Origin: an uncultured Amylibacter sp.
GTDB taxonomy: Bacteria > Pseudomonadota > Alphaproteobacteria > Rhodobacterales > Rhodobacteraceae
Assembly: GCA_943846615.1 (NCBI GenBank)
Contig: OX044354.1
Location: forward strand, 622,359-686,358
Direction: 5' to 3'
DNA: 64,000 nucleotides
The position numbers and the translations under genes are program-made. Positions 1 through 27,770 of this stretch are shown here, piece after piece. Each line of letters starts with the position of its first letter. The stretch's first letter is position 1. Under the pieces are notes generated by a model. It was not told where the DNA came from and did no database searches. It saw only the letters and a list, made by a program, of their open reading frames with translations.

Positions 1-149
1 ACGTGAATGGTTCTTAGCCCCACTTTTTGTAATCAAAGAAGCTGTAGAAAAGATTAAGGACGGCACAATTACTAGTGTTCGGTACAATCCTAAAACGGTG
101 GCATTTGAAAAGATTTGATTGCCAGAAAATGAGCGAGGAAAGATGAGTT

Positions 150-533
150 ATGTGTAAACCTGGATACCACTTTAAGCTTTGCACATGTGCGGCAGAAGAC
201 ATTGATGAGGAAAATTTCTGGCGCTTATTGCGGATCGACACATCGCCGCAAACGTTTGAGAGAACCATTGGTGTTTTTTGTTTTCCAGAACCTAATGTCG
301 AAAATACTGCAAATTATTTGAAAAATAAAATGCTCGAGGACTTAAACAAACATTCAGTTTTTGATTTTGAATATGCGCCAGTAGAGGGCGATACTTTGGA
401 AGTCACAATGGATGGGCGTGAGCTTTCTTTTAAGTATGAAAATGGTAAGTTTGTTGAAGGTGAGGAAGATTATAGCTTCAGACCTATGGAAGAGCATGCG
501 GAAGGCCGCATTGATGTTTGGTCTAAAGGTTAA
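150..533 (+). CDS. hypothetical protein (127 aa)
   Basis: ORF track only. I recognise no motif. Confidence 0.3.
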   Translation: MCKPGYHFKLCTCAAEDIDEENFWRLLRIDTSPQTFERTIGVFCFPEPNVENTANYLKNKMLEDLNKHSVFDFEYAPVEGDTLEVTMDGRELSFKYENGKFVEGEEDYSFRPMEEHAEGRIDVWSKG

Positions 534-823
534 AGTGAAATTCTATTAAAAGCTAATAATTGGGTATCAACTCATAGTGCTCGCCATAAAGACTAAGCCC
601 TATTCTTTTCATATAACCTTCGCACTTCACTATCTTTTTTAGTGGCCATTTAGATAGTTTCCGTGTTCGATGTGACTCTTAAAACCAGTCTGCAATGCCC
701 TGTTTAGTGCAGTCTGATCCAATGCTGCTCCCGATGACTTGGTTACATGCGTGTTTCATTGCTCGAAGTAACTCATGTTTCTGATCGTCAGCTACAATGA
801 CGCTCCCTCAAGAACACCCATCC

Positions 824-1312
824 TCAATTTAGGTATTTGCAACGTTTCTGCTGAAACGCCTCTTCAATCAAACATAACTGTTTGAACATATTCTCTGTTG
901 GCGAAGACTTAGTCTTTGGTGGGTAAAGGTCATGAGGGAAAACACTTGGTACGTAAGTATCGATACCGTGCTTCTGCGCATGATTATCAGCCTTGAATAT
1001 GTAATTGATGTAGTTTGAAAACGACGACGAGAACTTATGCTTTGGCTTGGTACTTTCCTCAAACTTCCGGACCCAAATCGTATTCCAACTGCATACACCA
1101 TCAGCATCAATAAGAGGCTTTTTCACTTCCCGTATGTCTGAAATTGCTGATTGTATTAGACAGATATATTTGGGTAGGTCTGCCTCAATGCGACACCAAT
1201 CTGATTTAGAAAAGACCATTAAGCCATGGAAATGAGGTTCATATGCTGCCTTTAAGGTTTCCAATCCAACTGTCCCAGACCTTGAGCTTTCAACATCACC
1301 TGCAATCATCAT
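824..1312 (-). CDS. hypothetical protein, possible remnant of an HUH-type rolling-circle Rep
   Basis: Contains EPHFHGLMVF (His-hydrophobic-His) and NYINYIFK (Tyr..Tyr..Lys). Upstream, 1313-1540 continues as open stretches in two other frames, which suggests decay. Confidence 0.25.
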   Translation of the reverse strand: MMIAGDVESSRSGTVGLETLKAAYEPHFHGLMVFSKSDWCRIEADLPKYICLIQSAISDIREVKKPLIDADGVCSWNTIWVRKFEESTKPKHKFSSSFSNYINYIFKADNHAQKHGIDTYVPSVFPHDLYPPKTKSSPTENMFKQLCLIEEAFQQKRCKYLN

Positions 1313-1892
1313 AGAATAGGTAAAGTTATCTGGTTTTGATATATCTCCATAAAGTATGCTCGATGTACCTTCTCGAAGACTGCTCTCTTGAAGTGTTCTG
1401 TATCAAATACTTCATTTGTATATATGGTAATGGCTAATGATCTCTCTGATGCTGACTTCAACATTATCATGCTTAAATAACAGTCTAGATTGATACATGA
1501 GTGTTTCTTGTTGGTTTTTGTTTAGTCTCATAATGCAAATTCCTTTCGGCAATAGAAATCCATTGACGTCGATGTACGCGCCTTTGGATCGTCAGTGATT
1601 TAGATGGTTAGAAGCATCACCGCGGCGTTGCTTTTTCGCCACCCATCTATTTATGTGGGCAGAACGGTCTCATTCGAAAAAAACTGAAAATTTTTGAATT
1701 ATTTTCGCAGAACGCTCATCGAGCGTCTGAGCTTAGCATTGTGCATCCAACTGGGATGTACTGCTTTGGTCATTCTGTCTCAAATAATATGCCTTATTCT
1801 AACAACGAGTAATTAGAACGTTCATAGGCTCATCCCAGTCAAAGCTGACATTCCGTAGTAACACCTGAGTACACTTAAAGATGGCTGGTGCA

Positions 1893-1974
1893 TGTTACCA
1901 CATAGATAGTAACATTATGGCTATATTTGATTTACTTGTTACTAGAATCAGCGTACACTAGACTCAAATGTTAC
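1893..1974. promoter_or_regulatory. TGTTAC repeat cluster upstream of the recombinase gene (putative res/operator site)
   Basis: Inverted pair TGTTAC-N10-GTAACA at 1893-1914, plus direct TGTTAC copies at 1937-1942 and 1969-1974, directly 5' of the serine recombinase start. Confidence 0.3.
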
Positions 1975-1988
1975 CAAAGAGGTATGTG

Positions 1989-2543
1989 ATGTCTTTAATC
2001 GGGTATAAGCGCGTTAGTTCTGAAGCTCAGTCAACAGATCGTCAGGATTTGGGTGAGCTTGATAAGGTCTTTGAGGAAAAGCTATCAGGCAAAAGTGCAT
2101 CTGATCGACCAGCACTATTGGCTATGATTGATTATGCTCGTGATGGTGACACGGTTAAGGTTCACTCTATTGATCGACTAGCAAGAGACCTGCGTGATCT
2201 ACAGTCCATCATTAGTCAGCTTAACGACAAAGGTGTTGCGATCTCGTTCTTGAGTGAGAGGCTGACATTTAACGCAGGTGCTGATGATGCCTTCGCTAAA
2301 CTACAACTACAGATGATGGGTGCGTTTGCTGAGTTTGAGCGCAACATTATTCGCAAGCGTCAAGCTGAGGGCATCGCCAAAGCTAAAGCCCGTGGCGTTT
2401 ATAAAGATCGAAAGCGTTCAACAGTTATTGATCGTGACGAGGTACGCAAGCTCAAGGCTGAGGGTCTTTCCACATACAAGATAGCTGACAAGATGGGCAT
2501 CTCACGGATGTCAGTTCATCGTATTCTTAACAACGCTGCTTGA
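1989..2543 (+). CDS. serine recombinase (resolvase/invertase family)
   Basis: MSLIGYKRVSSEAQSTDRQ places the catalytic Ser in context. It also has SIDRLARD and a C-terminal HTH (KIADKMGISRMSVHRIL). The ATG at 1989 is preceded by AAAGAGG at 1976-1982. The ORF track start at 1968 is probably too early. Confidence 0.9.
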   Translation: MSLIGYKRVSSEAQSTDRQDLGELDKVFEEKLSGKSASDRPALLAMIDYARDGDTVKVHSIDRLARDLRDLQSIISQLNDKGVAISFLSERLTFNAGADDAFAKLQLQMMGAFAEFERNIIRKRQAEGIAKAKARGVYKDRKRSTVIDRDEVRKLKAEGLSTYKIADKMGISRMSVHRILNNAA

Positions 2544-3109
2544 TAGGTAAAAGGGTGCGCCCCCAGAAGGCTGTAGCGCCTCACTGAGGGGCAGTAAACT
2601 CTGGGTCACTCGAGATTGTTTGAGGTTGGTCTGAGCCTGTAGGGTGCGTCTGAGGGGCAGTGGAACCTATGAAAAGCCAAAGAACTTTTCGGTTTGTCCG
2701 TGGAGTAAAATTTGCCGATGTGTTTTTAGGTAGCGACAGCGGCTCAACGATCACGAACCTCGAAGCACATCAGGCCACTGGCATAACCAAGATGATGGAG
2801 ATGAAAGGTGTTAAAAGATCAGAGAAATTTTTGTCAATATTACCAAATATTTTAACCCTTTGTTACCAGCCCAAAGTTAAAATCTTAGTTCTGAAAAAAT
2901 CAACTTTCTCCATAAGTGGTTCCTCAGGCAGTAGGTCCTTAAAGCCTTTCAGTATCATTTTTTGATCTGTTACCACCCCACATGAAAGACAAATCCACTT
3001 TTTAGATTGAGGGGCGACAGTAAAGAAACAACTTCTTTCTTTGTTTAGAGGGCACTGTGTTTGTGGGTAAGTAAAGACACGCGACAGAAATTTATTAGAA
3101 TATTCGCGT

Positions 3110-4773
3110 CTATTTTTCGAAGTTTTTTAAGTTATCCTGTCTGATAGCATCCATATAATTCATATATTCAGTAAATAAATATAACAGTTGATCGCCTGAC
3201 AGAGACATTAATTTTGGCCAAATTACTGCCCACCGCTTATTACCCCTGCTTATCTCTTCCCAACTCGTAATTCCAAAAAAAGTGTAGGGTTTTGAAAGTT
3301 TTCCCAACCTTAATATTGTCTCCTTAATTTTTTGAGTATCAAGATTAGTTCCAAAGCAATAAAGCAACTTTCTATTTTTATTGCCCTTACGACCGCCATA
3401 ATAGTGGAAAATTACAGTTTTTGGATCAGCATATTTCACTTCAACGTAAGCTTTATCAGAACTTTTATTTGGCGTTTTGATGACGTCACCGACATAAACT
3501 TTTTCTAATGGGACAATGTCTTTCGCGCTGCTCGTGCCTACTATTGCCCCACAAAATCTACAGTTTTCAGAGGTAGCAGCAATAATAGCATCACAACTTT
3601 CGCACTTTTTGGGTCTTGCAAAATACTCATTAGCCAGGGCCGCCTCTGGTATACTCACATCATTAACAAAACCTAACCTGCTGATGTTACCACCATAATC
3701 CAGTACAAGACAATTTTCCTTTTTGGCGTGAGGGCGCATTCCCCTACCTAACATTTGTATATGCAGAGATGGGCTTCGCGTGGGGCGTGCCATCACAATG
3801 AAGTCTAAGTCAGGTGCATCAAAACCAGTTGTAAGCACACCCACATTAGCAATTAATGAAACATCGCCCTTTTTAAACTTCAATAACCGTTCTGCTCTAT
3901 CAATTGCCGATAAATCAGAATGAATGAATGTTGAAGCTAAACCAGCCTCACCAAACCGAGCAGACATGTCCTCAGCATGAGATTTACTCACACAAAAAGC
4001 TAAACCCTTTTTCCGCCCCATGATCCTTCCCATTGTTTCAGAAACGATTTTTTTTGTAATTTCAGCACGATTGATATGCTCATCAAGCGACCAGTCAGCA
4101 AAATCATTTTTTGTTTTTTGAACCTTTGACAAATCGAGCGTGTCATGGGGTTGGATACCCTTTAAATCGCTTAAATACCCCTCAGAAATTAGCTTTGTGA
4201 AATCTGCGCCCCCCGAAATATCATAGAAAACTTTATCAAATGTCTTACCCCTCGCACAAATGCCCCATATCCATACGGAAAGGCGTGGCAGTGAGGCCAA
4301 CAATTCGAAGTGCAGGATTTACTTCTTTCAAATCATGAATGAACTGTTGGTACATTCCCTCACTTTTGTCAGAAAGCAAATGGCATTCATCAATAAGCAG
4401 TAAGTTGATAGTGCCAAATTTTTTAGCAGATCGAAATACCGATTGAATACCAGCGTAGATAATTGGTTGTGTAAACGCTCGGGAATTTAAGCCAGCGGAA
4501 TTTATCCCAGCTGGTGGCCTTCCAGGGGGGTGTTCCCAATGCATTTTAAGTTTTTCAAAATTTTGCTCAATTAGTTCTTTAACATGCGTCCACCATTAAT
4601 ATTCTGATGGTATTGTTGTGTCTAAAATACGTTTGAACGAGGTCAGCAATTATATGACTTTTACCAGTTCCAGTGGGCAGTACCGCTAAACCAGCTGAAC
4701 CACCGTCTTTCAGATATTTGCTAGCCGCTCGAACTGCTTCAGCTTGATAATATCGTGGCTTGTAACCTTGCAT
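3110..4773 (-). pseudogene. SF2 DEAD/DEAH-type helicase, disrupted by two frameshifts
   Basis: Three consecutive minus-strand ORFs (4579-4773, 4245-4544, 3110-4303) give ordered helicase motifs: LPTGTGKSH (I), LLIDECH (II), GLTATP (III) and HIQMLGRGMRP (VI). A CxxC..CxxC zinc ribbon follows. The frame changes near 4545-4580 and 4245-4303. Confidence 0.8.
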
Positions 4774-4919
4774 GCTACTCCTAAGAATCTAACCTCATAA
4801 AAGGTGAGAATTATTTCTCATAAATTTATTCATCATAATTCATTCCTTAATCTCAACAGCAGTGACACTCGCTGTCAGCATCACCAAAGAACAAGGACGA
4901 CTCATTAGCCAAGTTTAAG

Positions 4920-5942
4920 CTAGTCGGCATCGCTTTTCTTTGACCACCATGTGCCAACTTTCCCACCAAAATCAGAAACCGCTCCTTCGCCAGTCTCCCA
5001 CCAGTCTTTGATATCAGGCATTTCCATTCCCTTAATATCTTCCAAACTTGGAGTAGCTTCCTTTGCTATCTCCCATGCTTTGCTTGGAGATGCTTTGACA
5101 GCAGCCATAATTTCTTCTTTAGGCGGCACTTTAACAGCGCAAACTTTTAAATCGTTATCATTTGTTGTAAAATTAGGATCAAAAGCTCGCTGTAGTTCAG
5201 TCATATCTTTCATCGTAAGGCAGAGGTCTCTGATCTCCAGTGACGTCACTCCGACAATTACAGCAGTCCCAATCCATGGAATTGCTTCACCAGGCATCGA
5301 TGCTACGTTTCGTGCAGCAGAGCGTGCAGACCGTTTTCCAATCTGCTCTGAAGTTTGAGCTACAGCTTTCTTTAAAGCAACTTTTTCACCTTTAAACGTA
5401 ACCAACCCAGCTAACATATCATTATAACGGGATTTCAGAATGCCGTTTGATGCTTTCTGTGTCGCGAGTTCTCCAGCTTGGCTAGTAATTTTTGACTGGA
5501 GTGTCCTCTTGGCTTGTTTTTCAATGACAAGGTTTTGTGAAGCGCGGCCTAATTGTGACTTTAGTTCACTCTTGATCTTTTTTTCTGCTGCTAATTCTAC
5601 CGACGTTTGGGCCAATTGAGTAGACAGTTCGCGCTTCATCTTTTTCTCAGTTATCAGTTTGGCACTTGTTTCGCCCAATTCGGTTTTGAGTTCGCGTTTT
5701 ACTTGCCGCTCAACTACTAAATTATCACCTAATTGAGCAATTTCTGCTTTGTTGCGAGAGCCAATTGTTTGTATGTTTGTTACTGCTTCAAAGCCACTGT
5801 TCAAAATTGAGAACAGAGAGCCGCCAAGGAAGAGAGCCAGATTGATACAAAGCGATAATACCAAAACGAACGATACCAAAAGGAATTTGACAGTTTTAAG
5901 TGCGCGCCAGATGAGTTTTAAAGTTTTCAAGTTGGGTTCCAT
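4920..5942 (-). CDS. membrane-anchored coiled-coil repeat protein, unknown function
   Basis: N-terminal hydrophobic helix (FLLVSFVLVLSLCINLALFLGG). Four to five ~21-aa units of the type xEKKxKRELxxQLxxTSxxL. A second hydrophobic segment (IPWIGTAVIVGVTSL). Confidence 0.5.
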   Translation of the reverse strand: MEPNLKTLKLIWRALKTVKFLLVSFVLVLSLCINLALFLGGSLFSILNSGFEAVTNIQTIGSRNKAEIAQLGDNLVVERQVKRELKTELGETSAKLITEKKMKRELSTQLAQTSVELAAEKKIKSELKSQLGRASQNLVIEKQAKRTLQSKITSQAGELATQKASNGILKSRYNDMLAGLVTFKGEKVALKKAVAQTSEQIGKRSARSAARNVASMPGEAIPWIGTAVIVGVTSLEIRDLCLTMKDMTELQRAFDPNFTTNDNDLKVCAVKVPPKEEIMAAVKASPSKAWEIAKEATPSLEDIKGMEMPDIKDWWETGEGAVSDFGGKVGTWWSKKSDAD

Positions 5943-6136
5943 CCATCAAAATAATCAAAATTTACTGTGTCTACGTAATACACTTTGAACAACCCCAAAA
6001 GACAACAAGCCCCTCAGATCAACTGTGAGCAACCTTGTTATGGGAGACACAAGGCTGGCACAACGGCATTAGCAAATGAAGATATCCATTTTGGATGGAA
6101 CTTTCTCAGCACTCAAATGGCACCTCAACGAAATTG

Positions 6137-6451
6137 TTATACCGCCTTCTCCAACCACTCCCTCATCACACTCACTGGATAACCTGAACCGTACCCCTGC
6201 CCTACACCATCAGTCGTCCACCCACCTATCTGGTAGGTAGTATCTGAAGGACATTGTACTGCCCTCAATCTGTCTCGTATTGAGTGGCTGAAGCTGTGCA
6301 TCGTGCATCCATCAGGAACGTACTGTTCTAACCATTTATTAAGTGCTTTACGGGTGACTTTTCGGTTGTACCTTGTGAAGATAAAAGCTGATGCCGTACC
6401 CACTTCTACCATGCAATTAAGTGCCCATAAAATATTTAAAAACCTATACAC
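6137..6451 (-). pseudogene. tyrosine recombinase (integrase) C-terminal fragment
   Basis: Box-II-like MHSFSHSIRDRL, GGW, and a terminal GYGSGY tyrosine region. About three quarters of a normal integrase is missing. Only ~48 nt separate the top of the ORF from R1. Confidence 0.7.
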
Positions 6452-6499
6452 AAAACCAATACACCGTCAATTAAGTCATTGTTAATAAACAATTGATAT

Positions 6500-6546
6500 G
6501 GATTGCAAATCCGTGTACACGAGTTCGATTCTCGTACTCGCCTCCA
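6500..6546 (+). repeat. R1: 3' 47 nt of a tRNA-Cys(GCA) gene (anticodon loop to CCA), no 5' half
   Basis: Sequence is ggaTTGCAAAtccgt gtac ACGAGttcgattCTCGT actcgcc t cca. It shows the anticodon loop with GCA, the T-arm, the 3' acceptor strand, discriminator U and CCA. No matching GGCGAGT acceptor 5' strand lies upstream. Confidence 0.85.
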
Positions 6547-6685
6547 ATAAAATCAATGGGTTAGCCAATTTTCGTGCAATATGGTTTGTAAAACGGTTCC
6601 CACGAATGCAAAAACACTAAGTAAAATAAGCAATTGTGCTGATCTTACCCCCCCGACTTTCAATGTTTGCTTAGGGCCCTTTCCT
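6547..6685 (+). repeat. cassette left arm (homologous to 23535-23685)
   Basis: Shared blocks include ataaaatcaatgggttagc, tGTAAAAC and cttcaatgtttgctt.g.gccct. Confidence 0.6.
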
Positions 6686-6937
6686 TACAAATTTCAATCC
6701 ATCGTTAGGAACCATATCGTGGAGGGGATGAATTTGGAAACTAAGATATGAATTACGGCCCATTCTTCGTTTCGCATCAGCTCCTCTGCTGTGTGACACT
6801 AACGTCTCATTCATTCAGGGTGCCTGTTTGATGACAGTTGTGCCGGCTAAGAATCTCGCTTGTTTTTATGATTGGTATTCTAATAAATTCATGTATTATT
6901 ATTTAAATTCTTGTGACCTAAGAAATGGGGGCTTCTT

Positions 6938-8926
6938 ATGCCAACTAATATTATTAAAAAAACCGCAATGGGTGCGTCTCTGATAGCAATGTCCGTGGCT
7001 GCTCCTGCAGTATTTGCGGATACTCCTGCAAAAACAGTTAACTGGGAAGGTACATATGCCGGTGTCGGTTTAGATATTTCAGACACGAGTGTTGCCGGCT
7101 CGACAGATTATGGGGGGATGTATGGTGGTGATATAAAGCCTTCTCCAAATATATCTCTTGGTAAAAACTGGCAATCTGGCAATGTTGTAAAAGGTATTGA
7201 GCTTTCCTTTTTTGGTGGAATGGATGGCGGCTATCTTTTTGATGAACCACAATTTAACAATGCATATTTGGCGACTTATGATTGGAATTGGGCAGCATCT
7301 ATTTCTGGCCGCGTTGGTATTGCGAATGGTCGCTGGCTAACTTACGCCTCCGCAGGTGTAACTTATGCCGATCTCTTTCTTTTAGCGAGTGAAGACCAAC
7401 CATTGGCTACTGACACATACGCAATTTTTTCCGATTCCAAACAATTGGGCTTCAACGCAGGATTTGGCGTGGAATATGCGTTAAATAAGGGTGGATCGTT
7501 GGGATTGGAATATGTTTATACAGCATTTCCATCGGTTTTTTCTGATACACGACCAAATGGTGCAACCTCAAACTCAGCAGGTGATCTTGCTACAGATTCC
7601 CATACGCTTCGGTTCACTTATAATTACTACTTTGGTGATGGATTGAAGGAAACTGAAAACAGTTCTCTAGATCCTTCCGCCTCATGGGCGGGTGGATATC
7701 TATCGACTTTTGCCCAAGCTGGATTAATTTTGGACGATAACCTGAATGGTAATTATTACGGAAACACTCGTGCCTATTCTTCTGCAAACGCTCTAGGGCT
7801 TGGCGTTGGATATAATTGGCAGATTGGTAATTTTGTTTACGGTGCGGCTGTTGATGTAGCCAGCGGTGGTTTAAAATCTGATTCATACTATGGGGACGAT
7901 TACGCAAAAGAGCTAGAGTGGAATTGGCTCACAACTATCAGAGGCCGTGCAGGTATCGCTACTGGTGATTTGTTATTTTACGGAACGGCAGGGCTTGCAG
8001 TGGCCGATGCTTTCATGGGCCTTTGTGACACAACTAATGCTTCTAACGGATGCGATGCTGCTGACTTTGAAAATACTTATGACGGCACTACTTTGGGATT
8101 GGTCGCTGGGATTGGTGCTGAATATCGCTTAAGCGGACGTAGCACAATTTTCATGGAATATAATACACTATCGTTTCCTTCGGTTTTATCCACGACTGCA
8201 GGAAGTACCGCACCTGTCGGAGCGGCAGATTCTACAGCAAGTGCGCACTTCTTGAAATTTGGATTAAATTATTCCTTTGCGCCGAGCCAATCAAAAAGCG
8301 CCGTTGAAACCCACGACTGGTCAGGAACTTACGCAGGGCTTGCTTTCGCACCTCAAAACCAATTTCTATCTGCAGCACATTACGATACTGGTGGTAACGG
8401 CGCTGAATTAGTGGTGCCTGCTGCTGTTACGTTTGGTAAAAATTGGCAAAGTGGAAATTCAGTGTGGGGCATTTCCGGTGATTTCATGGCTGGCGCTGAT
8501 GAAGTGCATATCCGTTGGGATGATTTTGATTATCAAATTGCTTCTCAGTGGAATTGGTCAGCGTCAATACGCGGTCGAGTGGGTATAGCAACTGGCGATG
8601 CTCTTTTATACGCAACTGCAGGTGTGACCGTTGCAGATATCGAAGCTAGATCTTGCGAATCCAATGGCCCTGGCTCTACGGATTGTACTTTTGCAGGCTC
8701 TTCCGATGTTGAAGCAAGTATTGACGATATCTTTGTTGGCCTCACAGCGGGTATAGGTATTGAGTATGCTGTGAAAGAGAATATGAGTATGTTTGCTGAA
8801 TACCGTTACACTGGATTTTCAAGTAAAAGCAGATTTGGATCGGCAGTTGCGTCAGACTATTATGGTGATTTTACAAATTACAGCCACGGAGTGTTGTTGG
8901 GATTGAACTACAAATTTGGTAAATAA
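6938..8926 (+). CDS. outer-membrane protein with three tandem Omp25/Omp31-type beta-barrel domains
   Basis: Signal peptide ...SVAAPAVFA. Three ~200-aa units (approx nt 7019-7642, 7685-8278, 8299-8923). Each unit has WNW.ASI(S/R)GR.GIA.G..L.Y..AG(V/L)..AD, G...AG.G.EY and a terminal (Y/L)NY.F motif. Confidence 0.8.
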   Translation: MPTNIIKKTAMGASLIAMSVAAPAVFADTPAKTVNWEGTYAGVGLDISDTSVAGSTDYGGMYGGDIKPSPNISLGKNWQSGNVVKGIELSFFGGMDGGYLFDEPQFNNAYLATYDWNWAASISGRVGIANGRWLTYASAGVTYADLFLLASEDQPLATDTYAIFSDSKQLGFNAGFGVEYALNKGGSLGLEYVYTAFPSVFSDTRPNGATSNSAGDLATDSHTLRFTYNYYFGDGLKETENSSLDPSASWAGGYLSTFAQAGLILDDNLNGNYYGNTRAYSSANALGLGVGYNWQIGNFVYGAAVDVASGGLKSDSYYGDDYAKELEWNWLTTIRGRAGIATGDLLFYGTAGLAVADAFMGLCDTTNASNGCDAADFENTYDGTTLGLVAGIGAEYRLSGRSTIFMEYNTLSFPSVLSTTAGSTAPVGAADSTASAHFLKFGLNYSFAPSQSKSAVETHDWSGTYAGLAFAPQNQFLSAAHYDTGGNGAELVVPAAVTFGKNWQSGNSVWGISGDFMAGADEVHIRWDDFDYQIASQWNWSASIRGRVGIATGDALLYATAGVTVADIEARSCESNGPGSTDCTFAGSSDVEASIDDIFVGLTAGIGIEYAVKENMSMFAEYRYTGFSSKSRFGSAVASDYYGDFTNYSHGVLLGLNYKFGK

Positions 8927-8953
8927 TCCTGATCACTATTTAAAGTATTTAAA

Positions 8954-8980
8954 GGGGCGATTGATTGATCGTCCCTTTTT
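8954..8980 (+). terminator. rho-independent terminator after the OMP gene
   Basis: ggggcgat-tgattg-atcgtccc stem-loop followed by TTTTT. Confidence 0.6.
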
Positions 8981-9037
8981 GCATAGGACTACTGGAACGA
9001 TGATAAGTTGTAAAATTTCTTTTTTGAAGGCGAATGC

Positions 9038-10561
9038 ATGAGTTCTAGCACCAGCCAATTAGCAAACAAAATTCAAACCTTAATTCATTCTGGAAGATTG
9101 AATGACGCTGAAGATATACTGAAGTCAGAATGTACGCTTGTCAAAATGGATGCTGACTTAACAACGGCTGCTGGACAAATTGCCTTACAGAAAGGTGACA
9201 TATACCAATCGGTCGTTCACTTTAACCGAGCGGTAAAATTGAAGCCAAATACCTGGGAGTTTTTGAACAACCTAGCTTTAATTAATCTGAAAACCGGGCG
9301 TCCAGATTTAGCGGTTAACGCTATTCGAAAATCTGCAAAACTCAATCCTAGAAATGCCGAGACATTAAAAATCGAAATAGAGGCTTTGTTTGCATTAAAC
9401 AAAATTGAACAAGCAAAATCGAAAATCGAAAATGCGATGTCGTCAGGCTTGAGGAATGTTCATGTTCTTGTCGATCTTGCACGTATGCATCGCGCTTTGG
9501 GTCAGAATAACAAAGCCCTAAAGATATATCGTGATATATCCAATTCCCCAACTGCAACGGCTGGGGCCATTTTTGGCATGGCGCAATTAGTTGATAAGCA
9601 CGACCCTTATCCCGAAGCATCTATTGTTAACACGATGATAGAGCGTGGCGATTTACCTCCTGATCAAATGGCGAATTTGCATCGTGCAACTGCCATCCGC
9701 GCCGACCAAATATCCGACTATGCAATTGCATTCAAACACCATGAGATGGCCAGCCAAATAATTTCACACGGGCGCGATGGGACGCAAAGACTTAGGAGTT
9801 TTCTCACGCACGCAAGAAAAAATTTCACCAAAGAGAACATATCAAAGGCCCAAAAACACACAAGTAAATCAACGAAGCCGGTATTCATTTTCGGCATGCC
9901 TCGCACCGGAACAACACTAGTGGAGCAAATTATTTCAGCGAATGAAGTCGTTCATGCTGGAGGTGAAATTGATTTTTTCAATCACGTTGTTAATAAATTT
10001 GAAAATCAATGGCCTGACCGTTCTGAATTAAAGTCAATAGCGAAGGATTACCTAACGCTTTTAAAGGAACATGGCGGCACGAAGAGTTATATAACAAACA
10101 AGTTACCCGGTAACTTTCAACATCTTTGGATTATCTCAGCGTTGTTCCCAAATGCAAAATTAATTTTTTGTCAACGCGACCCATGTGCCACGTGTACATC
10201 GTGCCTTACAACTTCACTAGGTACGGTGCATGACTATGTTGGGTCGCAAAAGAATCTAGCTGACTATTACAAAATGCATTTGCAACTTATGAACTTTTGG
10301 AAAGCTAACATTTCACAAGTTATTCATCATGTTCAGTATGAAAGACTCGTGAAATATCCAAAAACAGAAATTAAGAGCCTCGCAAAATTCTTAGGGATAG
10401 ATGCAACTCCTGAAATGTTTAATTTTCACACCTCAAATCGCCCTATCCAAACACCGAGCATCGATCAGGTACGCCGCCCCATGGATACAGGAAAAGTCAG
10501 TAGTTGGAGGCGTTACGAGCCCTTTTTGCAAGAGCTAATTATCGAGCTCTCTAAGACATAA
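9038..10561 (+). CDS. TPR-repeat protein with C-terminal sulfotransferase domain
   Basis: N-terminal TPR-like helices. FIFGMPRTGTTLVEQ is a PAPS 5'-phosphosulfate loop, and FCQRDPCATCTS is 3'-phosphate-motif-like. No signal peptide. Confidence 0.8.
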   Translation: MSSSTSQLANKIQTLIHSGRLNDAEDILKSECTLVKMDADLTTAAGQIALQKGDIYQSVVHFNRAVKLKPNTWEFLNNLALINLKTGRPDLAVNAIRKSAKLNPRNAETLKIEIEALFALNKIEQAKSKIENAMSSGLRNVHVLVDLARMHRALGQNNKALKIYRDISNSPTATAGAIFGMAQLVDKHDPYPEASIVNTMIERGDLPPDQMANLHRATAIRADQISDYAIAFKHHEMASQIISHGRDGTQRLRSFLTHARKNFTKENISKAQKHTSKSTKPVFIFGMPRTGTTLVEQIISANEVVHAGGEIDFFNHVVNKFENQWPDRSELKSIAKDYLTLLKEHGGTKSYITNKLPGNFQHLWIISALFPNAKLIFCQRDPCATCTSCLTTSLGTVHDYVGSQKNLADYYKMHLQLMNFWKANISQVIHHVQYERLVKYPKTEIKSLAKFLGIDATPEMFNFHTSNRPIQTPSIDQVRRPMDTGKVSSWRRYEPFLQELIIELSKT

Positions 10562-10631
10562 TTTGTATTGTTGGCAAATTTCACAGATAGCATCCCGAAC
10601 AAGATTTCGAAAATTGTATTGTATGGCTGTT

Positions 10632-10755
10632 TTCCCCACACCTGACGTTGAGAATCGAATATCCATTTTACATTAAACTGATAACCCACTGATATTACAC
10701 GGGTACTCTGCGGTTCATTTTGCAAAATAATCTAATGAAATCAATGGATGTAGTA
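10632..10755 (+). repeat. cassette right arm (homologous to 27601-27723)
   Basis: Shared blocks include ttcccca..., tatccattttacatt, taacccactga, cggttcatttt, ctaatgaaatcaa and atgtagta, immediately 5' of R2 and R4. Confidence 0.65.
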
Positions 10756-10802
10756 GGATTGCAAATCCGTGTACACGAGTTCGATTCTCGTACTCGCCTC
10801 CA
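10756..10802 (+). repeat. R2: tRNA-Cys(GCA) 3' fragment, identical 47 nt to R1
   Basis: Same 47-mer as R1. The upstream sequence is not a tRNA 5' half. Confidence 0.85.
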
Positions 10803-10809
10803 AATAAAA

Positions 10810-11634
10810 TCAATGACTTGCGGTGAATTGTACATCTTGATGTCCTTTCGGTTTACATTGTATCCCGTCATCGCCATTGAGACAGACTGCGGGTTTGAAA
10901 TTTGCCCGTTTGGCCAGCGCCACATCGATGATCGCCAATGCATAGAGTTGGCCAAAGAGTGTTGGCAAGAATAAGAAAACACCCGGACCAATCCCACCAA
11001 GCAAAGTTAGGTCGCGCATTTGGGATACAATCTGTAAATCTAAACTGCTGACATAATATGAAACCATGATGGCAATCATCATGGTGATTAACAGTCTGGC
11101 AACTGCCTTGCGGTTACTGACGGGGCGATGTTCGATTGGGATGCGGTCAGGCATGCGGCCGCGTTCCAACAGCTTGAACGAATAGACGGCGAAGCCAAGT
11201 AAACCCGATATAATTGCGCTGAAATGAAGTGAATACCCAATGTCAAAAAATGAGCTAAGGGTAATATTCGCCAGATCGAGTAAAGCGCAAATCAGGGCGT
11301 AACTGAATACCATATCTAACGCATACAGGAGCCGTGCGACGCCACCGCCCGAGCTGAACGCAGCGAAGGAGATAAAAAACGAAAATATGAAAATGCGAAC
11401 GGCCACGGCATGCCGCCCCTCATATGGTGACAAGACAAAATCCCTGTTTGGGAAATATGTGGACACAAAGGGTGTATTCACCAACCAAAGGAAAAAAGTC
11501 GCAATAACACAAAATGCCAACAGCATAGCGGGTGCGCGCATTTGTGAAACGGGACCAGCGAAACGTTTGGGGGCGCTGTCGACGGACACAAAGCTGATTT
11601 GATCGCGATTATCTTCTGTGTTTGTATCTGTCAA
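10810..11634 (-). CDS. polytopic membrane protein, possibly 3'-truncated
   Basis: Roughly 6-7 hydrophobic segments. The start overlaps the stop of the upstream gene by 4 nt. Its stop codon (10810-10812) lies in the conserved 'aataaaatcaatg' flank of R2. Confidence 0.45.
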   Translation of the reverse strand: MTDTNTEDNRDQISFVSVDSAPKRFAGPVSQMRAPAMLLAFCVIATFFLWLVNTPFVSTYFPNRDFVLSPYEGRHAVAVRIFIFSFFISFAAFSSGGGVARLLYALDMVFSYALICALLDLANITLSSFFDIGYSLHFSAIISGLLGFAVYSFKLLERGRMPDRIPIEHRPVSNRKAVARLLITMMIAIMVSYYVSSLDLQIVSQMRDLTLLGGIGPGVFLFLPTLFGQLYALAIIDVALAKRANFKPAVCLNGDDGIQCKPKGHQDVQFTASH

Positions 11635-13196
11635 AATGTATCCTTCGCGGCTGGAACCCTGATTAAGAGCGCATTAGGCGCGCCTAGGCGATTTAACCCC
11701 ACTTTAGAAAAATCAATTTTTTCGACCTGAATTTCACCTTCGTCGTCAAAACGAACAACCCAGTTTTGAAAACCATCCTTTATAACGTCCTCGTCAAATT
11801 GAAGGATAGAGCGATCGAAGAATGCGATGTTGCCACCCGCCCGCGTCCCAACCAGCGTAGCGTCTTTTGGGGTAAGGTAACTGATCATTTGGGACAGGAA
11901 TAATGCTTGGTTATGCGTCGTCGTCTGAATGCCGCTGACCGTTATTTTTTGCATCTTACGAAGCGCGTTTTGCAATTCTGTTAGCGGATCATCAAAGGTG
12001 GATTTTCCCGCCGTCAAAACAGTATCCCGTTCCATTTGCGCAAACATGACAGGTCCTTCATTGCATTCGCCAATGTTGACATGCGATGAATGAATGCTGA
12101 CTTCGATCAGGTTTTTTGCGTCTTGGAGTTCAATCGGCAAGTTGATGGCAGCACGGTACATACGTGCATTGCGTTCCAATCTTTGATTAAGAATAGTCGC
12201 GCCGTTCAACGTCACGTTTACCTGCCACAATGCATCATCCAAAAGCGATGACATCGTTAAATGGAGATCAAGCACATCCGGCAGTGATTGATGTTTGAAT
12301 TCACGCGGTTCGTACTTAATCCGCCAACTTGTGGTTTCATAAAACTTACGTGATCCGTAATTTGAACCTTTGACGGCAACATAGTGCGGGAAACTGATTT
12401 CTGGCTCCAATACTTTTGGCAAACTGGTTTCCAAAAGTTGCAAATTTGGTCCGGAGAATGCGTTGATATCATCCTTGGCGCTGAATTGAACGCGTTCACC
12501 TTGTTGGATGAACCGTGACGCAATTTCGATTTGCGCAACCTGGTTTTTGAGCTGTTTGTTTTCATTCCATTGAATTGGGATTTTGCGTCCCAATGCAAGA
12601 ACTTGATCGCGCGGCGTTTCAATCGCGCGATCAAGGTTCAAGTATAATCCGCTGGTCGTTTCCACTTCTACGATAGCAGCTATGCCATCTTGAGAACTGC
12701 ATGTTTGGGTGCTGTGAGACCCCAACAAGCTGTAGGAAACGACCAGCCGCTCTTTTACCAATTCCTCTGCGTGTAAAGGAATTCGCAAAGAGCGCCCTGC
12801 TTCGCCTGGATACAATAGCATTTCACCTCTTTTGGTGTTTTCAATCGAAACGCGCAGAACGCCTTTCACACCATTTAGGACCTGAGATGTAATATCTATT
12901 TGGAGGTAACCAGACGTTGGGCGCGCATCGATTGGCATCGAAAACACAGCGCCCTGATAAGCAGGTAAGCCAGTAAGAATAGTTGGGTTATCGGTGTGAG
13001 ATCCGAAAAACACATTTGTGGTATTACCAAGGTGTGCATCCCGTTCATCGACATTCGATATTTCGAAGTTCAATTGTGGACCGAATGCAATTTCGTTAAA
13101 TTGCTGAATTCCACGTTTTGTAATGTTCTGCGACGACAGTAAAAACACTGCCCACGCGACGATAAAGGCCATAAGCCCGATGCCAATCATTCTCAT
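11631..13196 (-). CDS. N-terminally anchored periplasmic protein; BcsB-like is only a weak impression
   Basis: One N-terminal TM (IGIGLMAFIVAWAVFLLS) followed by a ~490-aa soluble region. Co-oriented downstream of sqdB. Confidence 0.4.
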   Translation of the reverse strand: MRMIGIGLMAFIVAWAVFLLSSQNITKRGIQQFNEIAFGPQLNFEISNVDERDAHLGNTTNVFFGSHTDNPTILTGLPAYQGAVFSMPIDARPTSGYLQIDITSQVLNGVKGVLRVSIENTKRGEMLLYPGEAGRSLRIPLHAEELVKERLVVSYSLLGSHSTQTCSSQDGIAAIVEVETTSGLYLNLDRAIETPRDQVLALGRKIPIQWNENKQLKNQVAQIEIASRFIQQGERVQFSAKDDINAFSGPNLQLLETSLPKVLEPEISFPHYVAVKGSNYGSRKFYETTSWRIKYEPREFKHQSLPDVLDLHLTMSSLLDDALWQVNVTLNGATILNQRLERNARMYRAAINLPIELQDAKNLIEVSIHSSHVNIGECNEGPVMFAQMERDTVLTAGKSTFDDPLTELQNALRKMQKITVSGIQTTTHNQALFLSQMISYLTPKDATLVGTRAGGNIAFFDRSILQFDEDVIKDGFQNWVVRFDDEGEIQVEKIDFSKVGLNRLGAPNALLIRVPAAKDTF

Positions 13197-13262
13197 ATCA
13201 CAAACTCACACGAATTGGCGTTGATGCCCCTCCTCCAAGAGGGAGCATCAACACCGTTATGG

Positions 13263-14474
13263 TTAAGCCGCTAAAGGCTTTTGCACTAATCCTGGACGTT
13301 GGTTTTCAGTCCATGTCGAAACACAAGGGATCATGTTGACCTGACAACGCTTTGCAAATCGCATTGCGATTTCTTGCGTTTCGTCCATCAAACCTTCCTC
13401 GAGTGTGATCGGTTTAAGGCCCAACGAAATGAATGTTTTGTTGCACACCCGCAGCCCGTTTTCAGCAGCCTCGTTACGGGGATTATCAACATTCGCGATC
13501 AAGGCATCGGTAATTTTTGATACGATGTTTGCTAAATCCCGAACGGTATGGGTTTCCGTCATTTGGTTTAGGATTTTCACTTTACCATTTCGCTCTGGTG
13601 GGTTTTCCACCGCCAAGGCCAAGCATTGTACCGTGTCTTGAATGTGAATAAATGCCCGCGTTTGCCCGCCTGTACCATGGACGGTCAAAGGATGACCAAT
13701 GGCAGCTTGCATCAAGAACCGATTTAAGACGGTGCCATAATCACCATCGTAATCAAAACGATTGATCAAACGGTCATCCAATTTTGTTTCCGCCGTTTGC
13801 GTTCCCCAAACGATACCTTGGTGTAAATCCGTAATCCGCAGGCGATCATTTTTGGCATAAAATTGAAACAACAACTGATCCATAGATTTCGTCATATGGT
13901 AAACACTGCCCGGATTAGTTGGGTACAAAATATCGCGTGGATAGATTTGTTTGTCATCCCCAGGAATGTAAACTTTCAAATATCCTTCGGGAATTTCAAT
14001 GCCATCATCGTCGTAGCCATAAACACCCATCGTCCCGAGGTGAACAACGTGACTGTCCAGTTTTAGATGCGTGATCGCGGCCAAAATATTGTGCGTTGCG
14101 GAGATGTTGTTTTCAACGGTGTAACATTTTTCATAGCTACCCTTCATCGAATATGGCGCCGCACGTTGTTCGCCAAAATGAATAATTGTGTCAGGTTTTA
14201 AGCTTGCTAACAGTTTTTCCAACTGATCGTAATCGGTTGCCACGTCGATTTCATCAAAGGCAATAATTTTACCAGTTTCTTCTTTCCATGCCTGCAAACG
14301 CTCTTTCATGCTGCAGATTGGTGTCAGGCTGTTCGCGCCCAACTCGATATCAATTTCACGGCGCGCAAAATTGTCTACGATTGATACTTTGTGTCCAAGA
14401 TTTGACAGGTGCAATGCTGTTGGCCATCCGCAAAATCCATCGCCGCCAATTACCAGAATATTTTTCATTTTCAT
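13263..14474 (-). CDS. sqdB: UDP-sulfoquinovose synthase
   Basis: MKNILVIGGDGFCGWPTALHLS Rossmann start, YHMTK (YxxxK), ~400 aa. The overall sequence is familiar from SqdB/SQD1. Confidence 0.85.
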   Translation of the reverse strand: MKMKNILVIGGDGFCGWPTALHLSNLGHKVSIVDNFARREIDIELGANSLTPICSMKERLQAWKEETGKIIAFDEIDVATDYDQLEKLLASLKPDTIIHFGEQRAAPYSMKGSYEKCYTVENNISATHNILAAITHLKLDSHVVHLGTMGVYGYDDDGIEIPEGYLKVYIPGDDKQIYPRDILYPTNPGSVYHMTKSMDQLLFQFYAKNDRLRITDLHQGIVWGTQTAETKLDDRLINRFDYDGDYGTVLNRFLMQAAIGHPLTVHGTGGQTRAFIHIQDTVQCLALAVENPPERNGKVKILNQMTETHTVRDLANIVSKITDALIANVDNPRNEAAENGLRVCNKTFISLGLKPITLEEGLMDETQEIAMRFAKRCQVNMIPCVSTWTENQRPGLVQKPLAA

Positions 14475-14659
14475 TTCTTTCCATTATCGCCGGTCGAAAT
14501 TGACGAATGCAGTCATTGCATTTTCGGCGTCTCTGAAACCTTTGTATTCTGAAGACGGGTATGAAATCTTCTGTCAGGGAGTATAGAGAAAGATGTAAAA
14601 GTTTAGCGGCACTATCCCTTAGGATAGTTTTGACGGTCAAAATGGTGGTCTGTGAAAAC

Positions 14660-15358
14660 TTATTTCAGCATCCGGTATGTCAGTAACAAAATACCGAATG
14701 CGGACAATCCGATTACGGGCCAATTTTGCGATCCAATGTTTGCACCAATGACACCAAAAAGCGCCCAAATGACGGCAATTGTATATGCCCATTCCTGTCT
14801 GCGAAGTGATTGAACATATAATGCGGCAACCAAAACACTGCTTAACATCAATAAGGCAGCCACTTGGGGACTTACGATTGCGTATCCAGAGAGTACGACG
14901 CCAATTCCCACCCCTGTCGCAGCCGTCAACCAACCCGCGTACAGGGCAACAGGTCTAACTTGCCAAATTGGGTCGTTTGAACCAGCGTTGAGCATTGCAC
15001 GGACGGCCAAGACAACCATGGCGACAATCATGAGCGTTGCGAGAATTGGAGATGCATTGGCGGCGGCAACCCAAAACGTTCCGATTCCCAAGCTTGCGAG
15101 GAGTGGTAGGCGCATTGAAGTCCATGCGCGATCAAATGGTGCCTTGAGCAGCCCCCAAAGTGAGCCAGAGATCAGCCAGATGTAAATGACACCCCAGATG
15201 CTAAAGGTCCAACCTGCGGGTTGCACAGGCCAAAAATCCTGTTGAACCGGAAATTGATCAGGTGAGAACCCCGCGAAGTTTTCGTTGAGCCATGGTGAGA
15301 TGGCAAATGCGATTGCTGTGATCAAGACAAAAAAGGCAAGGAATTGGGGTCGTTTCAT
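14660..15358 (-). CDS. Trp-rich membrane protein, TspO/MBR-related
   Basis: Multi-TM and W-rich (PAGWTFSIWGVIYIWLISGSLWGLL). Lies at the end of the cfa-type operon. Confidence 0.5.
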   Translation of the reverse strand: MKRPQFLAFFVLITAIAFAISPWLNENFAGFSPDQFPVQQDFWPVQPAGWTFSIWGVIYIWLISGSLWGLLKAPFDRAWTSMRLPLLASLGIGTFWVAAANASPILATLMIVAMVVLAVRAMLNAGSNDPIWQVRPVALYAGWLTAATGVGIGVVLSGYAIVSPQVAALLMLSSVLVAALYVQSLRRQEWAYTIAVIWALFGVIGANIGSQNWPVIGLSAFGILLLTYRMLK

Positions 15359-15395
15359 CTGTCGTGTGCCTGCATTGTTATGGTTAGGGTTGATT

Positions 15396-15956
15396 TCATT
15401 TCTGAGCAGCGGGGTTTGGACGCATTGTGGCGATTAATTCGGCCACTTTGATTCCAAACTTTCGCATTTCAGATTTATTCATGATCACACCATTATCTGT
15501 CAGATACATCCAGTCCGTCGCATTAAGAACGTAACCGCCTGCCTCTTTTGGTAGAATGATATCGTAAGTAAGTTTAACCGTTGAACCCGAAACTACACCT
15601 TGGGCGGTGCCAACAATGTCATCTGCGGTGGCGGTAAACATATTTTCAGAGACAATCATTAGATACCATTTGCGTTCCTGTTTGCGCCCATTGGTATAAG
15701 TGAAGCTTTCGCTGAGCGTGCCTTTGTCGCCGTCCCACTCGCCGACCATTTCCGCGACAAAACTGTTGGTCATTTTACCGTTTGGACCATAGATCAAACC
15801 CTCGGACAGGATGCGGCCCGAAAGTTGTTTTTTCAGATCAAAATCGGGCCCCGTATCGGCGTAATCCGCCGGTGACTGAGAACTAAAGCTGAAGAACAGT
15901 TTTTTCGTGACCAGTAATGTTAGCGCGAGAAGTAGAAATATTGTTAAAATTTTCAT
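15396..15956 (-). CDS. DUF3833-like lipocalin-fold protein
   Basis: Signal/anchor peptide, ~185 aa. This is the typical neighbour of cfa/MFS genes in RpoE-ChrR regulons. The family name is from memory. Confidence 0.45.
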   Translation of the reverse strand: MKILTIFLLLALTLLVTKKLFFSFSSQSPADYADTGPDFDLKKQLSGRILSEGLIYGPNGKMTNSFVAEMVGEWDGDKGTLSESFTYTNGRKQERKWYLMIVSENMFTATADDIVGTAQGVVSGSTVKLTYDIILPKEAGGYVLNATDWMYLTDNGVIMNKSEMRKFGIKVAELIATMRPNPAAQK

Positions 15957-17182: not shown

Positions 17183-17224
17183 ACCGCCTGCCCCGCCACA
17201 GTATGTAAATTATTGTGTGTAATT

Positions 17225-19661: not shown

Positions 19662-19692
19662 ATATTCCTCGTTTTAATGTGTTATAAATAAT

Positions 19693-19719
19693 ATACGATG
19701 GAGACTTGGCCTTGGATCA
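19693..19719 (-). promoter_or_regulatory. RpoE(sigmaE)-type promoter for the oxidoreductase-cfa operon
   Basis: The minus strand reads TGATCC-aaggccaagtctccat-CGTAT, ~30 nt before the ATG at 19661. Confidence 0.6.
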
Positions 19720-19737
19720 ATGTTTTTGATTTTTTTT

Positions 19738-19764
19738 TGATCCGAAAACGGACAAGCTTCGTAT
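19738..19764 (+). promoter_or_regulatory. RpoE(sigmaE)-type promoter for the DUF1365-SDR operon
   Basis: TGATCC-gaaaacggacaagctt-CGTAT, 10 nt before the ATG at 19775. Confidence 0.6.
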
Positions 19765-19774
19765 TTAGGGTATT

Positions 19775-23387: not shown

Positions 23388-23489
23388 CTTTTGTGATTTT
23401 TTTCCTCTCATTGAGGGAAAAAAGTGTTGGTCAAAGTATTACGGCATTTTGCCCCCCAACCAATTCAACGATCTATCATCCGCGTAATT

Positions 23490-23534
23490 ATTGCAAATCC
23501 GTGTACACCGGTTCGATTCCGGTACTCGCCTCCA
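23490..23534 (+). repeat. R3: variant tRNA-Cys(GCA) 3' fragment (45 nt)
   Basis: attgcaaatccgtgtac ACCGGttcgattCCGGT actcgcctcca. The T-stem differs from R1/R2/R4 by paired (compensatory) changes. Confidence 0.8.
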
Positions 23535-23685
23535 ATAATATCAATGGGTTAGCTGTTTTACGTGCAGTGATTAATGTAAAATGGCCTGTAAAACAGCCCC
23601 TATGGGTGCACAAGACACCAAATCATCCTCGACTGTTCTGATCTCGGCTAGTCTGCGATCTTCAATGTTTGCTTTGAGCCCTTAT
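23535..23685 (+). repeat. cassette left arm (homologous to 6547-6685)
   Basis: Contains ataatatcaatgggttagc, GTAAAAT (23576), GTAAAAC (23588) and cttcaatgtttgctttgagccct. Confidence 0.6.
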
Positions 23686-27723: not shown

Positions 27724-27770
27724 GGATTGCAAATCCGTGTACACGAGTTCGATTCTCGTACTCGCCTCCA
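27724..27770 (+). repeat. R4: tRNA-Cys(GCA) 3' fragment, identical 47 nt to R1/R2
   Basis: Same 47-mer, followed by ataaaatcaatgggtta as at R1. Confidence 0.85.

Follow-up and report, generated by a model that had tools for sequence, protein, structure and literature searches.

A predicted three-barrel outer-membrane protein encoded beside a conserved TPR-sulfotransferase partner in an uncultured Amylibacter

Introduction

Does a single polypeptide that carries three small β-barrel units make three barrels or one, and what could such a protein be doing at the cell surface? The question is raised by a 64,000-nucleotide stretch of DNA (the window) from an uncultured Amylibacter sp. of the Rhodobacteraceae (assembly GCA_943846615.1, contig OX044354.1, positions 622,359 to 686,358 of the forward strand), in which an open reading frame (ORF) with an ATG start encodes a 662-aa product. 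An initial annotation, made from the letters of the sequence, described this product as a secreted fusion of three Omp25/Omp31-type barrels and as the cargo of a cassette. We propose, with a probability of roughly two in three, that it is a Sec-exported 8-8-8 multibarrel, a tandem of separately folding eight-stranded barrels, which works with a cytoplasmic TPR-sulfotransferase encoded next to it as a two-gene surface-modification module. The architecture itself belongs to a published class and is not new; what is new here is the conserved partnership with a TPST-like TPR-sulfotransferase, the most informative feature of the locus and one that the initial annotation had missed, together with the packaging of the two genes in a mobile cassette.

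Results

Three complete barrel units in one chain

The family profile PF13505 (OMP_b-brl, Pfam) matched the whole protein in three stretches (E=1.6e-26, 94 bits), which is the number of matches that had been anticipated for such a scan. When the protein was divided at its linkers and each unit was run separately, all three scored above the gathering score of 28.7 (Table 1) and each match spanned approximately positions 17-175 of the 175 of the profile, indicating three complete copies and not fragments; the description of one secreted chain with three Omp25/Omp31-type units was in this respect correct. The motifs on which that description had been built were all located where they had been placed, with YDWNW at residue 114, LEWNW at 326 and SQWNW at 536, and with the unit ends YNYYFG at 228, LNYSFA at 443 and LNYKFGK at 656. 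By inspection, the N-terminus (MPTNIIKKTAMGASLIAMSVAAPAVFA followed by DTP) reads as a Sec signal peptide with an n-h-c layout ending in VFA before the aspartate, and AlphaFold gave residues 1-29 a predicted local distance difference test score (pLDDT) below 50, with a low-confidence helix in the signal-peptide stretch. The two linkers that join the units are 16 and 12 aa long.

Structure prediction was the check proposed for telling three barrels from one. The AlphaFold2 model of the full chain, built on a 22-sequence alignment, reached a mean pLDDT of 83.8 and a predicted template modelling score (pTM) of 0.83, and DSSP assigned to it 24 long strands in three sets of eight, with confidence dipping at both linkers. 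Unit 3 was also modelled alone, and 12 of the 12 DSSP segments of the lone unit coincided to the residue with those of unit 3 inside the full-chain model, which would be unlikely if the unit belonged to a barrel of different curvature. Its best structural matches in Foldseek were the OmpA transmembrane domain (template modelling score, TM, 0.68-0.69), OmpW (0.57), NspA (0.56) and Ail/OmpX (about 0.5), eight-stranded barrels with which it shares only 9-18% sequence identity. The full chain superposed poorly on barrels of 14-22 strands (TM 0.15-0.26, root-mean-square deviation, rmsd, 15-23 Å), including 22-stranded TonB-dependent receptors of like length (TM 0.16-0.26, rmsd about 20 Å), and neither the 24-26-stranded ushers nor LptD were among its top 50 matches; we read this as evidence against one single barrel. 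FadL and TonB-dependent receptors headed the full-chain list by local similarity, with superpositions that are meaningless, and were rejected as homologues. The chain contains no plug domain. Searched by sequence against the PDB, the full-length protein gave no match at E ≤ 1, and no experimental structure of a multi-barrel chain was found among the PDB matches of that search or of the Foldseek searches with the full chain and unit 3. Taken together, the lone fold of unit 3, its identical segmentation, the lack of any large-barrel superposition, the short and variable linkers and the missing plug lead us to consider, on the predicted models, that an 8+8+8 layout is very probable and is to be preferred to a 24-stranded barrel. 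The high pTM suggests that AlphaFold fixes the barrels relative to one another.

A TPR-sulfotransferase gene keeps company with the barrel gene

An orthologue of the TPR-sulfotransferase encoded next to the barrel gene (Table 1) directly adjoins it in every informative contig of the clade whose barrel proteins are at least 36% identical to the query. This linked clade comprises 7 distinct proteins on 8 contigs and 4 gene arrangements, and the partner orthologues are 34-40% identical over their full length (E down to 5e-126). The sulfotransferase gene lies upstream on the same strand in L002 (Loktanella), L082 and L083, downstream on the same strand in the window, convergent with a 17-nt overlap in L086 and L088, and divergent in L169 and L170. 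The identities of sulfotransferase and barrel run parallel in matching pairs (79/86, 50/61 and 62/60%, respectively). That the two genes have stayed adjacent in four different orders and orientations speaks for selection on their linkage, beyond synteny that is merely inherited.

The pairing is absent in three-barrel relatives of 28-30% identity, which sit among housekeeping genes. As a background control we took distant paralogues of the partner (25-34% identity), collected in a metagenome scan with the sulfotransferase alignment, and found an OMP_b-brl gene within about 4 kb in 0 of 80 such metagenome loci, using a barrel hidden Markov model (HMM) for which all positive controls scored. A literature search joining TPR-sulfotransferase, outer membrane and Rhodobacteraceae found nothing. 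Contig L087, from a metagenome-assembled genome (MAG) labelled Verrucomicrobiota and the only clade contig without a sulfotransferase, carries two paralogous multi-barrel genes in tandem, P0003 at 1349-2971 and a partial one, P0023, at 3120-4125; each shares 47-49% identity with the query.

The terminator-like hairpin just 3' of the barrel gene (Table 1) was revealed by folding and was not listed by a simple terminator scan; its 69-nt region has a minimum free energy of -18.4 kcal/mol (z = -2.6), and the hairpin alone accounts for a centroid of -16.4 kcal/mol.

A TPST-like catalytic domain and its candidate substrates

The partner matched PF13469 (Sulfotransfer_3, Pfam) with 113.9 bits, and in a PDB sequence search the closest solved relatives of this catalytic domain were human TPST1 and TPST2 (E 6e-13 to 1e-10, over nearly the whole domain), the next solved sulfotransferase, CurM, being far weaker (4e-5). 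The 5'-phosphosulfate-binding (5'-PSB) loop for 3'-phosphoadenosine 5'-phosphosulfate (PAPS) reads GMPRTGTTL where TPST1 has GVPRSGTTL, an RD pair is aligned in the 3'-phosphate-binding (3'-PB) region, and the alignment also retains G-E, the lysine of NK.P and the serine of PS.DQV. The aligned Arg of the PSB loop, the Glu base, the Lys and the Ser are what we take, from the structure of TPST2, to be the catalytic positions of TPST; 5/5 orthologues keep the Arg, the Glu and the Ser, and 4/5 keep the Lys, L086 having Leu. As judged by these alignments, the catalytic domain of the partner is TPST-like.

On the barrel side, some residues do not vary within the linked clade and are missing from unlinked three-barrel proteins, and these are concentrated on the face predicted to be extracellular. 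They are D57 and G59 (STDYGG) in loop 1 of unit 1, Y274 in loop 1 of unit 2, the loop-2 residues D320 (motif GDDY) and Y532 (motif D.DY), the Trp that opens WNW in each of the three units, and one Cys pair. The pattern hints at the barrel loops as a candidate substrate of the sulfotransferase; a glycan or lipid bound or displayed by the barrels would be just as plausible a target.

Predicted topology, closing motifs and putative disulfides

An even number of strands places both ends of each barrel, and thus the linkers, on the periplasmic side, so the linkers are expected to be periplasmic; with their 12-16 residues they could bridge neighbouring barrels only, and the protein would in effect be a covalently tethered trimer. 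Each unit closes with a motif resembling a β-signal ([RK]xGxNYx[FL]), namely HTLRFTYNYYFG in unit 1, HFLKFGLNYSFA in unit 2 and GVLLGLNYKFGK in unit 3, and the orthologues repeat this end-of-unit pattern. The window chain ends in GLNYKFGK, with the Phe at -3 and not terminal, and the orthologues end in NY[RSA]F. From a β-signal-like motif in every unit we infer that the β-barrel assembly machinery (BAM) handles one barrel after another during insertion. The initial annotation had seen in such a chain an unusual substrate for BAM, and the same question is already put by Solan et al., who ask if a single signal at the C-terminus is enough or if every barrel needs recognition of its own (PMC8346858).

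In the clade, units have exactly two Cys each, about 5-10 residues apart in loop 3, whereas unit 1 of the window protein (residues ~150-160) lacks both, reading ASEDQPLATD where the orthologues read GCEDLPCPTD. This joint loss of both Cys fits a loop-3 disulfide.

Relatives and the age of the triplication

An exhaustive HMMER search through 1.84 billion cluster representatives returned 4,046 relatives, and 27 of these reached E ≤ 1e-30. Among 186 collected relatives, a set in which the three-unit query favours multi-unit proteins, a unit HMM counted one complete unit in 48, two in 77, three in 55 and four in 4, which answers the proposal to survey multi-domain homologues; in the 55 three-unit relatives the gaps between unit matches had medians of 19 and 16 aa. 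In reference genomes, a scan built on the alignment of 7 closer sequences found three-unit ORFs in a Loktanella sp. and in two alphaproteobacterial MAGs. Plasmid records yielded single-barrel relatives only, with no full-length relative and no DNA match to the cassette. Several homologues carry the name 'outer membrane immunogenic protein', given by the Joint Genome Institute (JGI). We also observed OMP_b-brl units fused to an autotransporter barrel (PF03797, about 920 aa), to OprB (PF04966, about 740 aa) and to a TonB-dependent receptor (1062 aa) in the proteins P0027, P0029, P0031, P0033; P0021, P0034; and P0037, and these may be further mixed multi-barrel architectures akin to the 22-8 type of Solan et al.

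The units of the window protein are 32-39% identical to one another at the protein level, with their best-conserved DNA stretches at about 60-70% identity, a divergence too great for an assembler to have collapsed the copies. Uninterrupted three-unit relatives with the same linker positions and 36-50% identity come from independent assemblies (P0001, P0002, P0004, P0005, P0006 and P0044, of which P0005 is a protein of Loktanella sp. Alg231-35), and the N-terminally truncated P0003 (540 aa) retains units 2 and 3 together with a portion of unit 1. Each window unit matches the unit of the same number in the orthologues best, with about 120-220 bits vs 70-120 for the other units; for unit 3 the margin is narrow against P0004-P0006. 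This ordered correspondence indicates that the triplication is old and predates the divergence of the clade, as judged from the protein comparisons.

A near-identical metagenome contig, L001 (ENA ERZ10646685), carries the gene as three calls of 328, 238 and 87 aa. Over 11.3 kb (L001 8719-20036 vs window 6500-17810) there were 0 substitutions and 7 one-base insertions in L001, 6 of the 7 within homopolymer runs of 3-7 bases, a pattern that speaks for long-read consensus error and not for a true pseudogene. All 7 insertions fall inside the 4.2-kb cassette, 6 of them in the barrel gene, and none in the 7 kb to the right; an A7 tract occupies codons 6-8 of the barrel gene (window 6949-6955). This clustering may reflect low coverage of a cassette present in a sub-population, or real slipped-strand variation.

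A two-gene cassette between tRNA-Cys fragments

The view that the barrel gene is cargo of a cassette (cassette A of the initial annotation) agreed with what we found, in that perfect 47-nt tRNA-Cys fragments bracket the barrel gene, the hairpin and the sulfotransferase gene and nothing else (Table 1). Further copies of the fragment lie at 27724-27770 (perfect) and at about 23485-23535 (degenerate), and ARAGORN detected no intact tRNA in the 64-kb window. We looked for tRNA-Cys fragments near the gene pair of other organisms as well and found none, which makes the cassette packaging specific to the window organism. Each fragment is followed by a conserved ATAAAATCAATGGGTTA-like stretch, and ahead of the copies at 10756 and 27724 there are, in addition, about 100 nt that resemble each other. 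The array has the look of modules added in tandem at a tRNA attachment site, and it resembles the cargo arrays, bounded by partial tRNAs, of tycheposon-type elements.

To the left of the first fragment, L001 (1-8700) carries PglZ/BrxL (BREX) fragments and AbiEii, and the window (1-6499) carries a resolvase, a helicase-C protein and ORFs of no known kind; such different DNA in otherwise identical assemblies indicates a shuffling of modules among close relatives. A minus-strand ORF of 104 aa (6137-6451) stops shortly ahead of the tRNA fragment, and its C-terminus resembles by eye that of a tyrosine recombinase (HSFSHSIRDRL...GGW); this integrase-like reading found no support in Pfam, and the ORF may be an integrase remnant. 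To the right of the cassette, the minus strand of 10810-20000 encodes a 274-aa protein of no known kind, a BcsB-like 521-aa protein and an NAD-epimerase, to which gene calls on the identical stretch of L001 add a DUF3833 protein, a major facilitator superfamily (MFS) transporter and a methyltransferase resembling cyclopropane-fatty-acid synthase; the block may be an envelope or polysaccharide-related locus. Farther on, Rfam matched the Ruegeria cis8 small RNA at 34129-34256 (+), with 82.6 bits against a gathering score of 58. Along with the orthologue in Loktanella, this match fits a host of Rhodobacteraceae type, although the G+C content of the window, about 39-54%, is low for that family.

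Table 1. Window coordinates of the barrel gene, its partner gene and the repeats that enclose them
Feature	Position	Strand	Basis
Left cassette boundary: 47-nt tRNA-Cys 3' fragment (GCA anticodon loop, T-arm, acceptor 3' strand, CCA)	6500..6546	+	perfect repeat
Three-barrel outer-membrane protein gene, including stop codon	6938..8926	+	ORF; Pfam OMP_b-brl x3; full-length orthologues (36-50% identical)
Signal peptide, aa 1-27, predicted cleavage between VFA and DTP	6938..7018	+	by inspection; AlphaFold helix 4-19
Barrel unit 1, aa 28-233, 8 predicted strands	7019..7636	+	Pfam 34.9 bits alone; DSSP strands 32-231
Linker 1, DGLKETENSSLDPSAS, aa 234-249	7637..7684	+	between unit matches; variable among homologues
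Barrel unit 2, aa 250-448, 8 predicted strands, Cys363/Cys372 in loop 3, clade-specific GDDY in loop 2	7685..8281	+	Pfam 37.8 bits alone; DSSP
Linker 2, PSQSKSAVETHD, aa 449-460	8282..8317	+	between unit matches
Barrel unit 3, aa 461-662, 8 predicted strands, Cys573/Cys583, C-terminal GLNYKFGK	8318..8923	+	Pfam 43.4 bits alone; AlphaFold pLDDT 90.1; OmpA TM 0.69
Terminator-like hairpin, 12-bp stem, 4-nt loop, U-run, just 3' of the barrel gene	8951..8980	+	RNA fold
Partner gene: 507-aa TPR + Sulfotransfer_3 protein without signal peptide	9038..10561	+	Pfam; TPST1 E=6e-13; orthologues next to the barrel gene on 7 further contigs
Right cassette boundary: second perfect copy of the 47-nt fragment	10756..10802	+	perfect repeat

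Discussion

The window protein is a member of a class that has been described by computation. Solan, Pereira, Lupas, Kolodny and Ben-Tal (PNAS 2021) catalogued 12,643 multi-barrel proteins in 34 architectures and 186 multi-barrel families (MB-families), with a median linker of 22 +/- 13 aa; tandem 8-stranded barrels are the commonest type, and contact maps support separate barrels in the comparable 8-8 and 8-8-8 families, among them the 8-8-8 MB-family 007 (PMC8346858). By two measures of that study our protein is a multibarrel, with three non-overlapping full-length barrel matches in one chain and linkers of 16 and 12 aa between them; on a third, contacts that close each barrel (strand 1 with strand 8) and leave its neighbours unjoined, the indirect evidence favours separate barrels. 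It likewise resembles the poly-8 families described there (8-8-8 MB-family 007 and 8-8 MB-family 001), which have several complete 8-stranded barrels per chain, arose by lineage-specific amplification, have linkers of about 10-35 aa, are known solely by computation and share the open question of the BAM mechanism (PMC8346858). It differs in kind and host, since the two poly-8 superfamilies detailed in that paper are from Bacteroidetes and the window protein is of Omp25/Omp31 type and from marine Alphaproteobacteria, and the main text of the paper mentions neither a sulfotransferase pairing nor cassette packaging. Within its own family, each unit matches end to end the profile of Brucella Omp25/Omp31 and other single PF13505 proteins; these are single barrels of about 200-250 aa, whereas the window protein has three per chain, with longer hairpins and a loop-3 Cys pair. 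The nearest solved structures to one unit (OmpA, OmpW, NspA and Ail/OmpX, TM 0.5-0.69) are yet remote in sequence. The earlier view that a string of three barrels is unusual therefore stands in so far as the family is normally single-barrel, and is overstated in view of the published 8-8-8 proteins and of the 55 three-unit relatives found here.

Several alternatives concern the nature of the chain. It is very unlikely, in our judgement, that the 24 strands close as one large barrel: a pairing of strand 8 in one unit with strand 1 in its neighbour is conceivable, a pTM of 0.83 would suit one rigid body, and two OmpX barrels fused by a 2-residue linker gave a larger barrel (Arnold et al. 2007, cited in PMC8346858), but the linkers here are variable and of 12-16 aa, each unit retains the complete motif set of the family, a very wide pore would be left without a plug, and neither the superpositions on 22-stranded receptors nor the unchanged segmentation of unit 3 fit such a barrel. 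We regard it as highly improbable that the chain is instead a polyprotein from which periplasmic cleavage releases three single barrels for separate insertion by BAM. This would agree with the β-signal-like end of each unit (HTLRFTYNYYFG, HFLKFGLNYSFA and LLGLNYKFGK), given that the classical BAM signal is a free C-terminal aromatic residue; against it, the variable linkers hold no conserved cleavage motif, the two-gene module has no peptidase gene, AlphaFold sets the units confidently relative to each other, and chains of two, three and four units have been kept across many lineages, which is hard to explain if their linkage is irrelevant. That the long ORF is a pseudogene, or that three single-barrel genes in tandem were collapsed or wrongly corrected into it, is scarcely credible. 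The split of the gene into three calls in L001 would suit it, yet the differences there follow the long-read-error pattern, seven other independently assembled proteins show the same three-unit chain (one of them N-terminally truncated), and the units are too diverged for collapse, so that the collapsed array which had been named as the case that would overturn the description was not borne out.

A different doubt concerns function. The barrel protein may be an ordinary structural or adhesive outer-membrane protein (OMP) and the sulfotransferase may act on an unrelated metabolite or polysaccharide, their adjacency being a matter of synteny or co-transfer. We consider this rather unlikely. In its favour, the TPR-sulfotransferase family is very large (> 600 matched metagenome stretches) and mostly without a barrel neighbour, the distant three-barrel relatives among housekeeping genes have no sulfotransferase, and counts of acidic-context Tyr do not separate the clades. 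It fits less well with an adjacency that outlasts four changes of order and orientation at 36-50% protein identity, with the co-divergence of the two proteins, and with a mobile cassette that in the window consists of the pair alone. We thus prefer the two-gene surface-modification module, against which some observations must nevertheless be set. One clade member, P0003, shows no sulfotransferase on its short contig; the hairpin parts the two window genes and the pair is convergent or divergent elsewhere, so that co-transcription is not the rule; the pTM is high for three independent domains, and the tests by which we call three separate barrels, DSSP segmentation and TM-scores, are indirect; the clade-specific surface residues could reflect shared ancestry alone; and a crude count of acidic-context Tyr gave 6-12 per protein in the linked clade vs 2-10 in unlinked proteins, with no separation, and so lends no support to the barrel as substrate.

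How the module may work can be outlined as follows. The chain would be exported by Sec, and BAM would take the barrels one by one, each with its own closing strand and β-signal-like motif, so that three Omp25/Omp31-type 8-stranded barrels fold separately in the outer membrane and sit side by side, like a tethered trimer, with periplasmic linkers between them. Long hairpins would project outward, bearing the putative loop-3 disulfide and the clade-specific motifs STDYGG, GDDY, D.DY and WNW. The adjacent TPR-sulfotransferase, presumed cytoplasmic, would sulfate the Tyr-rich loops of the barrels before export, or else a surface glycan or lipid that the barrels display or bind, and in the window genome the two-gene module would be the sole cargo of the tRNA-Cys-fragment-bounded cassette. 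A more specific hypothesis, that the TPR domain recognises the unfolded pre-protein, that the enzyme sulfates the acidic-context Tyr of STDYGG, GDDY and D.DY, which end on the extracellular tips, and that the cassette moves between strains and re-decorates their surface, is in our view unlikely as a whole.

In Aah/AIDA-I, TibC/TibA and HMW1C/HMW1A a cytoplasmic enzyme is encoded beside its substrate and modifies it before Sec export, a precedent that makes a topology of sulfation first and export later feasible in principle. Aah, TibC and HMW1C are glycosyltransferases that act on the passenger domains of autotransporter or two-partner secretion (TPS) proteins, and not sulfotransferases acting on barrel loops. 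Closer in chemistry is RaxST of Xanthomonas oryzae, the only biochemically characterised bacterial tyrosine sulfotransferase, which sulfates RaxX (PMC4892823, PMC3897388). Like the window enzyme it is a TPST-like PAPS enzyme in a Gram-negative bacterium, and in vitro it sulfates a peptide of Ax21/Omp1X, likewise a protein of a small β-barrel OMP family; sulfation of Ax21 in vivo was never shown, and part of that literature has been retracted (PMC4892823, PMC3897388). The two systems differ in that raxST is described as grouped with type I secretion genes (raxSTAB-raxX, PMC11554876) and not with an OMP gene, and in the N-terminal TPR domain of the window enzyme.

For the family, a protein of 662 aa with a confident model and a β-signal-like motif in each barrel is a convenient test case for separate barrel insertion, the handling of multi-barrel chains by BAM being an openly stated question (PMC8346858). 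The TPST-like pairing offers a testable functional lead both for one multibarrel family and for one branch of a very large, uncharacterised family of TPR-sulfotransferases. If the barrel loops were indeed the substrate, this would be the first tyrosine-sulfated bacterial outer-membrane protein in vivo, and tyrosine sulfation in bacteria, represented so far by RaxST-RaxX alone, would gain a second system. For the organism, a cassette that carries this pair and nothing else suggests that two genes together can serve as a unit for the exchange of surface properties.

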